A stretch of 64,000 bases of DNA, taken from an uncultured Chlamydiales bacterium (lineage in GTDB: Bacteria; Chlamydiota; Chlamydiia; Chlamydiales; JAAKFR01). Below are positions 44,830-49,604 of this stretch, one piece after another; the first letter of the stretch is position 1, and each line of letters opens with the position of its first letter. Under the pieces are notes generated by a model, which ran no database searches, was not told the DNA's origin, and worked only from the letters and a program-made list of their open reading frames with translations. The stretch spans positions 16,138 to 80,137 of the forward strand of contig CAVPKN010000026.1 in assembly GCA_963705695.1 (NCBI GenBank), in the 5' to 3' direction. Made by a program: the position numbers and the translations under genes.

Positions 44830-47800
44830 ATGTCAATTCGGGCGATTTTTAATAGCTGGGTAAATGGAGTGGGGGAGATTGCCAATCAGCAATTAAAGTC
44901 GCGCTCTTTTTCAGTAAGAAAATGTATCCTTCACAATGTGTTAGGCTTGTTTGCGGGGCAAACCCAAGAAGGGTCCCCCCTTGAGCGATTGTCTACAAGC
45001 AATCAAACATTATGGGTACAGACCCTCTCTCTCCTGGAGCAAGAGATCGCAGAGCCGATCATCCACAAATACACCCAGCCCCTCCCTATTTTAGGGTATA
45101 TCCATGGGGATGCTTTAGTGATGGGAACTCCACTTGAAAACAGCTTATCTTTTAAAACAAGTCTACAAGTATGGATCGGTTATTTGGAATGTTCGCAATT
45201 CCCTATACCGCCCTCTCTTCTGAGTTGTTTGAAACAGCTACAACAATTGTGCACCGAAAATAGTTGGTTCGAAAAAGATACATTTTCAGCAGCTGAAGCT
45301 CTATCACAGGGAAAAGTGAGCATGAATGCGGTTTATCAACTGCGGCCGGATGACCTGCATTTGATGGTGGGTCGTTGTGTCGATAGTCAAAAACCTGAAG
45401 TCACTTATCCTATCCTTTTCGAATTCAAAAAGGAATCGGAGCAAAGTTACTTTTTAACAGTTTATTTGATTGCAAAAGAGGCAGCTCCATTTCAAGTCAC
45501 CATTGAAAATCAGAAACGGTGGATCAATCCCGTAATGGAGATCCGAAACATCTCCCCAGTAAACTTGTTTTTTAATGATGAGGGTCAGCCGATACAATCC
45601 GATTTTTTCCAAGCGATCCTTGAAACCCACATCACAGAATTTTCCGCTGAAGCGATGATCTTGAAGTTATTGAAGCACCTCTTAGAGTCAACTCACACCG
45701 ATTTCCCCTCCGTGACGATGAAAGATCCCGAATCTAACACTGAGATGTGGCGTATATTTAAAGCTTTAGCGAAAAAACATCTGAGGGAAAAGTGGTATCA
45801 ACTAGCGATGGCAGAGATGAAAGTCTACTCCTTAGTGGAAGGATATCAACTCTATAAAAAATACTTAACAAGCCAACAACCCGCCGTTCAAACACTCCGT
45901 ACCCTTTTGAAAACAGGAGCCTTAAATACCTATTCTAGACTTCAAGAGTTGGCTAAAACCGATTGGATAGAGGGAGAAATTCTCAAAACTTGGGGAGCTA
46001 CGGTGCTTGACCTGATCACCCAATTGGAACAAATCGAGAAAATAGAGGCTTTCCAACTGCAATCTGAACCCCCTCTTAGCTCGGAGTTGCCACAACTCGG
46101 TGCACCAAGTATCAGAGCGGAAAAATGGGAAGAACTGAGGGTGGCTCCTATAGAAGCCTCCGGACTGGAAGCGGAGCAAATCAGTACTACCTTGCCACGG
46201 TATTTGATTTTTGCCTTACCTGCTTCCGTAAAGTCTTTGCCTGTGACCTTGAAAAAATGGTTTGACCAAAGATGGGGAAATAAGGCGATCTATGCTTGGG
46301 AAACTGAGCAAGTGATTGAGATGCTACCCATCCCTTTCGATTCCAATAATTATTGGGCCGATCTTCCCGATGCAAAGCTCCTTCCGTTAATAGAAATCTT
46401 TTCCCTCATGCTCGATAAATATGATCTCAGCACCAAGAAGATGGTTATTTTGCCACGGACAACGAATACCGTTTTATCTCTTTATGTTCTCATCCATTAT
46501 CTTGCAGTAAAAATCGATGCTAACCACAAATTGAGTGATGACACGCGAGCGCCTCTGAAACTCTACCCCCTCTATTCCCCCGGCGAAGAGGATGATCTCG
46601 ATCCTTTTTTACTTCTCTCTCCTCAAGAATTTGAAAAAAGGATGCGCCTTAGAAAATACTTCGAAAAAACCTACACTGATCGTGTTAAATTAGAAGATGA
46701 AACAGATTATGAGGATTTTGCTTATGAACCCTACCCTCTTTTCGATTTTGCTGATACTTCACAGTCGCAGATCAGCACGCGCAAAATTCGAGGACTTACC
46801 CAATGGCTACTCGCTCTCGGAAAAAATTATCCCCAACTGAATGTTCAACATAGTGATAAAATTGAAATTCTTTCTACCCTGGTACAAGAGCTGCTGAAGG
46901 AAGAGATTTCGAACTCTCTTTTCTTTCAGGCTGGGCTCCAATATGTTTCCTATTTAGCAAAAGCCGCCTTCATCACCCGCCAATTTTTCCAAGATGCCAC
47001 AATGAGGAATTTTGAGAGAGAGCCCTGCGTCTTTATCTCCAAAAAAAAAGGAGACTCTTTTAGGGTCACCTATCGAGGGAGTAGGGAGAACAGGGATGAG
47101 GTGATCGTTAAAGCTGATCGCCATCCTAACTCTTTGCCGATCCATCCCTCGCTTGAAAAAGAGACACGCGAGTGGTTGAGTGAGCACAAATGGAATCGCC
47201 GTTTAAAAAATAAAGACACCTCTAAAGAGGAGGGTGAAGCCCTAATTTATGGCGATCCTTTATTACGCCTTTCCTGTGAGCCTACCTTATACCCCTACAA
47301 ACTGCTGATCTACTTCACACAAAATATCCACCTTCTAGAATCGGTGGATCAACAAACTCTTTTTGAGATTGAATTTTTTCGAAGTGTCTCTTTGCAACAA
47401 TCAGAGGGAAAAAAAGAGAGCAATTTTGAAACCCACTTCGAAATTTATACCCGCGACTCCTTTTTCCCTGTGAAAGAAGCTTTAAAAAATCCCCACTTCA
47501 GAAATCAATGTCACCGGTTTATTCGGAAGGGGTTGGGGCTTTTCTACACTCAGTGGGGCCGACGCCATCCTCCTATCATTTCCCTTCTATTTTTTTTAAA
47601 ACTGGCGATCCGCTTAAATGGGTTTGTCGAAAAACATGAATTTATAGAACCTAAATTTCTTGCCGAGTTAGGGGATCGGCCCGATCTCTCTCTTGAAGAA
47701 AAAAGTCTCATCGCTTTGCACCTCATTTTTGCCTACAAACAATCTCCATCTCCACTCAAGGAACAAGAAAAGGAAGACATTTTCATCGCCTGGTTTTTCT

Positions 47801-48194: not shown

Positions 48195-49604
48195 ATGGGA
48201 GAGTGTCGTATTTTGGGCTCCGATCAAAATTTGGAGCGAGGGTTACAGAGAAAGATCAATGGTCATTGGTACCAATACGTCCCGCCGCAACATTTAACCG
48301 ATATTGGAATCCCACACTCCCTTCTTTCTGACCACACCCATTGGGTGGCGACGGTACCTACAGAAAAAGCCGCCCTGCTCATCAGCCGTCGAGCCTCTGG
48401 TCGAACCATCGCATCGATGGGTGAAAATGGTGAGCTTTGGTCTGGGGATGAGCAAGTCATTGCTTGGGACAAAACTCATCCTTTGTCTCAATTTGACAAG
48501 CCTGAATATATTATGGCCACCGTAAAAGAAGGCAAATTGACTTCTTTAAATTTTACCCGTTACCATTCCCACAAGGGAGATCCTCTTTGCTTTAAAAACG
48601 AGCAGGGGCTTCTGCAGTACCAAGCAGATAAGGATTTTTATCTTTATGGGTGTCATAACGATGATGCCGCATTGGGAGTCACTTGTCCCTATCTGCTTTT
48701 GCAGAGTGTAGATCAAAAAAAGAGCAAAATACTCCTTCCTCATGGCACTTTCGAAGCGCATGCTTCATTAACGAACTTGATGGCCTTAGTTGTTGAAGAT
48801 GAGCGTGAAAAAGATCTACTGTTCACTCACCAAAATTGGCGCTGGGTCTACTTAGAATTCGACGTGGTCAAAGGAAAGCTAATTCCTCAGACACCAGAGG
48901 GGAAGATTTTCCTTGCCTACCTTTATTTTGCTACGCGTCATTATCAAAAAGCTCTTGAGCATTTAAATAGCTACGATATCCTTCTCGAATCTTCCCTTTA
49001 TACGTGTGAAATGCTCCTCGCTATGGTAGCAATATCGAGTTCTCATCAGGATGGGTCCCCACAAGCTGCGGCCATTGCTCTCCATGCCTGGTGTTTGTGT
49101 TTAAAGATCCGATCACGGGAACCCTCTCTTTTTGAGCAATATCGGGGAATATGGGGGACGCTGATAGAGAAACCAAGAACGAGATATATTCGCTTTGCTT
49201 ATAAGATTCCCCATATCCTTACTCTTTCCGAAGAACAACATCGCATGTTGCACATTGAAAAAAGAAACTTACCGGCAACCGTAAAACGGAATGCCGACCC
49301 TAACGAGAAGGCCCTGAACATCTATCGCCAGGAAAGAAAATTGCCGGTGCCTTTAACGGAACTGGAGTTTCGCAAACAGAACCTTACCTTCATGCCTCAC
49401 TCTGAGGAGGATCTTTATCTAACCCACTCTTCCCCCTTGCTTTTAACAGAGAGTCACATTGACCGACCCGAGTTTTTTTTCTCAAATTATAAAATTACCA
49501 AAATGCTTGTGTCAGAGCTCTTTTCAGGTTTGTGGCTCCTTGAGAAGAGAAGACTTGAAGAGTCACCAGTTCATCGATTCTTTCGATTGAGTTGCACGCT
49601 TTGA
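48195..49604 (+). CDS. hypothetical protein (469 aa), probably the continuation of 44830..48174; 3' end truncated
   Basis: Its frame is open back to 48114 and overlaps the end of the previous ORF (..KAVQTGNIISFSHPAMGECRILG..), so a single frameshift near 48160-48170 could have split one ~1,580-aa gene. The last ~35 codons are antisense to an unrelated gene fragment that begins at about 49500. Confidence 0.5.
   Translation: MGECRILGSDQNLERGLQRKINGHWYQYVPPQHLTDIGIPHSLLSDHTHWVATVPTEKAALLISRRASGRTIASMGENGELWSGDEQVIAWDKTHPLSQFDKPEYIMATVKEGKLTSLNFTRYHSHKGDPLCFKNEQGLLQYQADKDFYLYGCHNDDAALGVTCPYLLLQSVDQKKSKILLPHGTFEAHASLTNLMALVVEDEREKDLLFTHQNWRWVYLEFDVVKGKLIPQTPEGKIFLAYLYFATRHYQKALEHLNSYDILLESSLYTCEMLLAMVAISSSHQDGSPQAAAIALHAWCLCLKIRSREPSLFEQYRGIWGTLIEKPRTRYIRFAYKIPHILTLSEEQHRMLHIEKRNLPATVKRNADPNEKALNIYRQERKLPVPLTELEFRKQNLTFMPHSEEDLYLTHSSPLLLTESHIDRPEFFFSNYKITKMLVSELFSGLWLLEKRRLEESPVHRFFRLSCTL

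Follow-up and report, generated by a model that had tools for sequence, protein, structure and literature searches.

Two adjacent open reading frames (ORFs) at positions 44830-49604 of a 64,000-nucleotide stretch of DNA from an uncultured Chlamydiales bacterium (contig CAVPKN010000026.1; the whole stretch is referred to below as the window) are, with high probability, the remains of one giant gene of the bacterial DUF3638 family, which is frame-broken and truncated and most likely non-functional, because about 1,800 residues of its intact relatives are gone. In the reconstruction that we favor, the ancestral gene would have encoded a protein of ~3,000 to 3,700 residues of the bacterial DUF3638 giant family, of which the first ~1,558 codons (44830-49502), or ~45% of the gene, would survive with one −1 frame break at 48140-48153. 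At 49503-49516, the surviving part would have been joined to an inverted scrap of an effector gene, beside an Rpn-type nuclease/transposase gene, and what is missing would be a P-loop ATPase module with Walker A (MGxGKT) and Walker B (DExD) motifs, together with C-terminal repeats and a C-terminal hydrophobic anchor. The product would at best be a 1,114-residue N-terminal fragment, or one of ~1,590 residues if the break is erroneous or is bypassed by slippage, and such a relic presumably has no function.

The first ORF (ORF1) occupies 44830-48174 on the plus strand (1114 aa, with an ATG start and a stop at 48172-48174), and the second (ORF2) lies in a different frame at 48195-49604 on the same strand (469 aa, ATG start), exactly as given in the first-pass annotation of this DNA. 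Direct reading of the sequence showed that the nearest upstream stop in the ORF2 frame is the TGA at 48111-48113, so that this frame is open from 48114, that is, for 81 nt before its ATG, and overlaps the last 61 nt of ORF1, as the annotation had also noticed. Log-odds of codon usage along the sequence, with 16 other ORFs of the window as the training set, favored the ORF1 frame to ~48000-48150, the ORF2 frame at ~48150-49350, and no frame past ~49500; a lack of such support, named beforehand as a reason to doubt the ORFs, was thus not what we found, each frame being supported over its own part of the gene. The annotation had recognized no domain in the pair, and this largely held: Pfam and NCBIfam gave no match for ORF1 and only a sub-threshold ANAPC3/TPR-like match for ORF2, which agrees with the helical repeats of its structural model, while PDB sequence searches with both ORFs returned nothing meaningful.

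The pair had been described as an orphan and as plausibly a protein of a novel type. Word-indexed protein searches with ORF1 and ORF2 indeed found only the queries themselves, as deposited in NCBI/ENA on a contig of 82,225 bp and, for the same locus, in a Logan assembly of run ERR10755948, and the homologues appeared in the exhaustive HMMER (phmmer) search alone, which covered 1.84 billion representatives at 50% identity. This search yielded 60 proteins at E ≤ 1e-3 including self, i.e., 59 homologues, with 34 matches at E ≤ 1e-10 and 20 at E ≤ 1e-30; therefore, the pair is not orphan, and it corresponds to the N-terminal ~45% of a widespread, uncharacterized family of DUF3638 giants. Most homologues are 3,000 to 4,200 aa long, and ORF1 always aligned to their first ~1,100 residues. 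The best ORF1 relative was P0005 (E 2e-173, 36% identity, query residues 24-1105 against target residues 20-1103). Across the first ~1,560 residues the window protein is colinear with its relatives, at 34 to 36% identity to the closest one (P0005, on contig L002) and 25 to 33% to the others, and the ORF1 start codon agrees with homologue N-termini (P0007 over residues 1-152; P0034 and P0055 from residue 1 at 44830 in tblastn). On L002 (ENA ERZ25039592 contig_4740), P0005 (2,010 aa) is followed by ORFs of 339 and 892 aa, which together with it would make up a ~3,250-aa protein, and housekeeping genes (sigma-70, AAA_3, and HipA) occur in pieces on the same contig.

ORF1 and ORF2 are one gene split by a single frame break, as the annotation had supposed. 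When the 59 homologues were compared with the window by tblastn, each gave a frame 1 segment ending at 48138-48162 and a frame 0 segment starting at 48144-48162, and the two frames joined at 48144 gave a single 1564-residue alignment to L002 that crosses the junction without a gap; the single-gene reading rests on these colinear segments from every homologue and on the joined translation aligning through. Translated from 48114, the ORF2 frame matched P0005 residues 1104-1556 (BLASTP E 1e-71), with no gap after the ORF1 match, and P0009 residues 1138-1507 (E 2e-52). Both BLASTP alignments begin 17 codons 5′ of the ORF2 ATG, at PPKAVQTGNIISFSHPAMGECR, and the annotated ATG at 48195 is internal to the homologous region. 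The first part of the relic gene (ORF1 frame, residues 1-1105) thus spans 44830-48144, as delimited by phmmer, tblastn, the structural model, and the coding signal, and the second (ORF2 frame, 453 codons, equivalent to P0005 residues 1104-1556) spans 48144-49502 according to BLASTP, tblastn, and the structural model, both on the plus strand. The break between them, from frame 1 to frame 0 (−1), lies at 48140-48153 on the plus strand in the sequence ccctcctcccaaag, which is 10 to 25 nt upstream of the 48160-48170 first proposed. Colinearity is restored either by one added C, which gives ...IFGSLPPKAVQTG... with a length equal to that of the P0005 segment IFNSTPSSFIQSG, or by the ribosome slipping back one nucleotide (−1) at C_CCA_AAG, a heptamer at 48147-48153 that lies in the ORF1 phase.

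The annotation had suspected that the gene is also truncated at about 49500, and this was likewise found. Homology to any relative ends at 49502 (P0005 residue 1556, P0007 residue 1707 in tblastn), and inverted foreign DNA begins at 49516/49517, which places the rearrangement junction at 49503-49516. All tblastn matches of the 59 homologues fall within 44830-49502, and the C-terminal ~1,800 residues of the homologues had no tblastn match anywhere in the 64-kb window. From 49516/49517 to 50182, the sequence is 65 to 68% identical at the DNA level, in inverted orientation, to 60245-60917, 53673-54328, and 27453-28088 (blastn), segments internal to the giant genes at 57967-62943, 51320-56743, and 25840-29790, respectively. 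This minus-strand stretch of ~670 bp (49516-50182) is a degenerate fragment of the DUF294/SidM-like nucleotidyltransferase (NTase) region of a PARP-ankyrin-NTase-TPR effector gene, with both ends missing and a premature stop inside, and its 180-aa minus-strand ORF (49629-50171) shares 54 to 61% protein identity with the NTase region of the three giant paralogues. The last 34 codons of ORF2 (49503-49604, plus strand) form a non-homologous tail that reads through the junction into DNA mostly antisense to this scrap, which fits the loss of coding signal there. Downstream lies a plus-strand gene for an Rpn/PD-(D/E)XK_2 recombination-promoting nuclease/putative transposase (50384-51259; PF12784, E 2.5e-59; TIGR01784, E 3.5e-55). 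Recombination among effector paralogues probably caused the truncation, and the Rpn gene may have played a role in the rearrangement.

Several observations weigh against a non-functional relic. The window protein keeps 118 of the 152 positions (78%) that are near-invariant in its 12 closest relatives; 11 of these 12 keep 83 to 92%, and the lower value of the window copy could be taken as weak evidence of relaxed constraint, but it is matched by the most divergent intact relative, P0017 (76%). Coding statistics are still strong in both frames, which implies that any decay set in recently or that selection continues to act on the fragment. Moreover, the window represents 64 kb of an 82-kb contig, and the C-terminal half could lie elsewhere in the genome. 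Finally, the break itself may be a consensus error, as a homopolymer difference in an independent assembly repairs the F-box-like gene upstream.

That last point leads to the strongest alternative, which we regard as rather unlikely but deserving of serious consideration: an assembly (consensus) error could have created the 1-nt break, the true gene being a single ORF of ~1,590 residues at 44830-49604, a naturally shortened N-terminal-only derivative that may still be expressed and used. Logan contig L001 (run ERR10755948; window positions 43400-48082) is 99.9% identical to the window and differs only at three homopolymers in 4.7 kb, which means that the lengths of homopolymers either vary or are unreliable in these data. 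At one of them, a C9 run at 43767-43775 in the window, the Logan version is C8 and fuses the F-box-like ORF (43117-43794) with the next, 312-aa ORF (43787-44725), both on the plus strand, into one 535-aa ORF, so that these two ORFs are one split gene and the tract has either been misassembled or varies in length in the manner of phase variation. At the two other sites (A6/A5 at 46664 and A7/A5 at 47409), it is the window version that keeps ORF1 open and the Logan version that breaks it. It is these homopolymer differences, together with the repaired F-box gene, that make a consensus error at the break conceivable. The same reading gains from the coding signal, which is intact on both sides of the break, from the position of the break within a run of short C tracts, and from related metagenomic contigs, which are full of frameshifts typical of long-read assemblies. 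However, the break falls in CC/CCC runs rather than in a long homopolymer. L001 stops at 48082, short of the frame break, and no second, independent copy of this region turned up in a scan of metagenome DNA. As for a naturally shortened form, the "short" family members are assembly artefacts wherever their contigs were checked: frameshifts break up P0005, and P0018, besides being interrupted by one, reaches its contig end. No natural N-terminal-only member was found, and the final 34 codons of the supposed product are antisense junk without coding signal.

An improbable explanation concerns the other end, where the truncation might be a chimeric misassembly of a gene that is intact in the real genome. 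The repeated effector paralogues nearby could have misled the assembler, and the window covers only part of the contig; however, the fragment at 49516-50182 is just 65 to 68% identical to the paralogues in the window and is thus unique, diverged sequence rather than a collapsed repeat, and it is itself truncated at both ends with a premature stop. Still harder to accept is programmed −1 frameshifting on C_CCA_AAG, which would yield two products, of 1,114 and ~1,590 aa. Heptamers containing A_AAG are slippery in bacteria, this X_XXY_YYZ heptamer lies in the ORF1 phase exactly at the required frame switch, and the junction peptide would read ...IFGSLLPKAVQTG..., the slipped product (IFGSLLPK joined to AVQTG) being equal in length to the homologue segment. 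However, no downstream stem-loop or pseudoknot was found (the first 21 nt are unpaired; fold z = −1.16), nor any upstream Shine-Dalgarno-like element. In addition, the homologues are all single ORFs, so that slippage is no family trait; an in-phase heptamer is expected by chance in the 19-codon overlap at ~7% (estimate 19/256); and out-of-phase reading of an ancestral CCC-AAA (Pro-Lys) is by itself enough to create the heptamer. A second heptamer, A_AAA_AAG at 48078-48084, was rejected as a slip site, since the slipped frame stops at the TGA at 48111 and cannot fuse the ORFs. That ORF1 and ORF2 are two independent genuine genes is scarcely credible, even though both have their own ATG and stop codon and are present as separate proteins in public collections, because the match to single-chain relatives runs on past the ORF1 stop and, in the ORF2 frame, sets in 17 codons before the ATG, and the two separate, well-known genes that the annotation had considered as a contrary outcome are accordingly not what the relatives show.

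The family to which the relic belongs has a recognizable architecture. Full-length members carry Pfam DUF3638 (PF12340) at residues ~1,900-2,280 and no other Pfam domain, with Walker A (MGxGKT) and Walker B (DExD) motifs, and most intact bacterial members have one or two hydrophobic segments of ~20 to 30 residues within their last ~100 residues. The DUF3638 P-loop module gave no Pfam match in either window ORF and no tblastn match in the window, and a continuous ORF of ~3,000 to 4,200 codons with a hydrophobic C-terminal end, the hallmark of an intact member, is not what the window copy presents. A genome scan made with a 9-sequence alignment located members in metagenome-assembled genomes (MAGs) of Chlamydiales/Chlamydiae, Rhabdochlamydiaceae, and Waddliaceae, together with matches to the C-terminal half only on short Candidatus Berkiella contigs. 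With a profile search, the set grew by one protein from a Legionella sp. MAG and by fungal DUF6606-DUF3638-DUF3645 giants, which share the size and domain order of the bacterial ones, and the bacterial and fungal ATPase modules are homologous (hhalign probability 99.3). The annotation had pointed to Chlamydiae and Legionellales as places to look for homologs, and members were found in MAGs of both. On a further chlamydial contig (L006; CAVOJR010000002.1), the window protein has matches at 4957-6858 and 18579-20174, which suggests tandem paralogues of the giant gene in some genomes.

AlphaFold2 (AF2) with family alignments gave confident structural models of the two parts. The ORF1 model (predicted local distance difference test [pLDDT] 83, predicted template modeling score [pTM] 0.67) has an alpha/beta domain at residues ~176-300 followed mostly by helices, and that of the ORF2 region (pLDDT 84, pTM 0.77) a beta-rich domain followed by TPR-like helices. 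The profile and structure searches that the annotation had recommended gave a divided result. Foldseek against PDB returned no significant match for either model, the matches being helical-repeat noise, and the first ~1,600 residues had neither a Pfam match in the proteins scanned nor a PDB fold match. Against BFVD, by contrast, the top five Foldseek matches of the ORF1 model were all from Klosneuvirinae (Harvfovirus, Fadolivirus, Hyperionvirus, Yasminevirus, and Hokovirus; E 1.9e-8 to 2.5e-2, probability 0.98 to 1.0), three of them named as DUF3638-family proteins, although the ORF1 query is itself devoid of the DUF3638 domain. In addition, a hidden Markov model (HMM) of the bacterial N-terminal region matched residues 1005-1341 of the fungal protein P0073 (E 2e-6), with weaker colinear matches to two other fungal giants, at the position equivalent to the ORF2 region.

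The N-terminal region of more distant bacterial members contains a pair of motifs, GGWxGxxxGHAM(L/I/V)YxF...YNTGxG and, ~115 to 125 residues further on, Q(R/Q)SG(T/I)C(S/A)(W/F). In the clade of the window protein, the motif Cys is replaced by Asp or another residue and the His is partly kept; the alignment columns and motif counts place the degenerate pair of the window copy at 45406-45744 on the plus strand, with Tyr193 (45406-45408) and Glu305 (45742-45744) at the His and Cys positions, respectively. Examples of members that bear the Cys and His are P0020, P0026, and the Legionella protein P0067. In the model, the residue equivalent to the Cys opens helix 305-317, which comes after a sheet at 176-241. 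This placement of motif 2 at the N-terminus of a predicted helix suggests, as a lead only, that the pair may form a His/Cys active site in the distant members. The few papers that mention DUF3638 call it undefined and give no function, and the name "ubiquitinyl hydrolase 1" borne by eukaryotic and viral relatives in UniProt/UniRef is, we presume, an automatic label.

Compared with intact bacterial DUF3638 giants, the window pair is colinear with the conserved N-terminal ~1,100 residues and the next ~450, but it differs in being frame-broken and in having no ATPase module, C-terminal repeats, or hydrophobic C-terminus; the His/Cys motif pair of the more distant giants is also lost in this copy and its own clade. 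Its likeness to the giants of eukaryotes (fungi) and giant viruses (Klosneuvirinae) lies in the region before the ATPase, as seen in the BFVD and fungal HMM matches. DUF6606 (PF20255) was matched neither by the window ORFs (E ≤ 0.1) nor by the bacterial relatives scanned (E ≤ 1), and when the bacterial N-terminal domain was compared by hhalign with the DUF6606 regions of three fungal proteins, a weak test with so few sequences, the result was also negative. Unlike most bacterial members, all three fungal giants checked lack a C-terminal hydrophobic segment. In intact bacterial homologues, these segments appear reminiscent of the bilobed hydrophobic domain of chlamydial inclusion-membrane (Inc) proteins, but the latter are as a rule small and carry this domain close to their N-terminal end, and the relic has no such segment. 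Lymphostatin/LifA-Efa1 and the chlamydial cytotoxins (TC0437-0439 type, ~3,200 aa) are likewise giant proteins of intracellular or pathogenic bacteria, but they are unrelated: no TcdA/TcdB-type glycosyltransferase or C58 protease match was obtained from Pfam or NCBIfam in the window ORFs or the full-length homologues, and this identity was rejected.

Intact members may be secreted, membrane-anchored ATPases directed at the host, and the large host-interaction protein envisaged in the first-pass annotation is a plausible idea for the intact family but not for the relic. More speculatively, and with a probability that we place somewhat below even, amoeba-associated Chlamydiota, Legionella, Berkiella, giant viruses, and eukaryotes might share an undescribed class of giants (3,000 to 4,200 aa) in which a ~1,600-residue N-terminal module, whose ancestral His...Cys pair hints at a thiol enzyme, is followed by a helicase-like DUF3638 ATPase, then by C-terminal repeats, and finally by a hydrophobic anchor like that of Inc proteins; these giants would be host-facing, membrane-tethered, ATP-driven machines distributed by inter-kingdom transfer, with one copy being lost here. 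The occurrence of the family in chlamydiae, Legionellales, Klosneuvirinae, and fungi is consistent with genes being exchanged within protist hosts. The locus itself is ordinary and the family moderately interesting; through the relic, a large family of giants of uncharacterized function came to light, whose intact members, rather than the window locus, are the worthwhile experimental targets. For annotation, ~4.8 kb of apparent "orphan" coding sequence should be entered as one pseudogene/relic rather than as two hypothetical proteins. Taken with the split F-box and SulP genes and the NTase scrap, the relic indicates either that this effector-rich region is reshuffling and eroding or that the assembly contains indel errors, and in the latter case read-level checking is needed ahead of any effector catalogue.

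The remaining window holds further disrupted genes and giant effector genes. The SulP-family sulfate permease gene (8739-10179, plus strand) is split into two ORFs that match residues 1-138 and 198-378 of the Pfam model, with a frame change near 9225-9235, away from any long homopolymer. Three giant effector paralogues with ankyrin, DUF294/SidM-like NTase (AMPylase-like), and TPR domains are located at 25840-29790 (minus strand), 51320-56743 (plus), and 57967-62943 (plus), the latter two with an additional N-terminal PARP catalytic domain; the PARP-ankyrin-NTase-TPR combination is an unusual multi-enzyme effector architecture. A second Rpn/PD-(D/E)XK_2 gene lies at 62967-63872 (minus strand); between it and the one at 50384-51259 are both plus-strand giants and a gene with Sel1 repeats (56834-57505). 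The two Rpn genes have no DNA similarity to each other, and a simple composite transposon formed by them was rejected on this ground. The 64-kb window contains neither rRNA nor tRNA genes. An IS256-family transposase gene is located at 16355-17545 (plus strand; NF033543, E 6e-108), and its exact protein is also encoded on a second contig, which suggests a multi-copy insertion sequence. On the minus strand, a run of ORFs with weak PhyH (phytanoyl-CoA dioxygenase-like) matches (18297-19514, 19561-20442, 20938-21468, and 22338-23684) may represent a paralogue array or further split genes.

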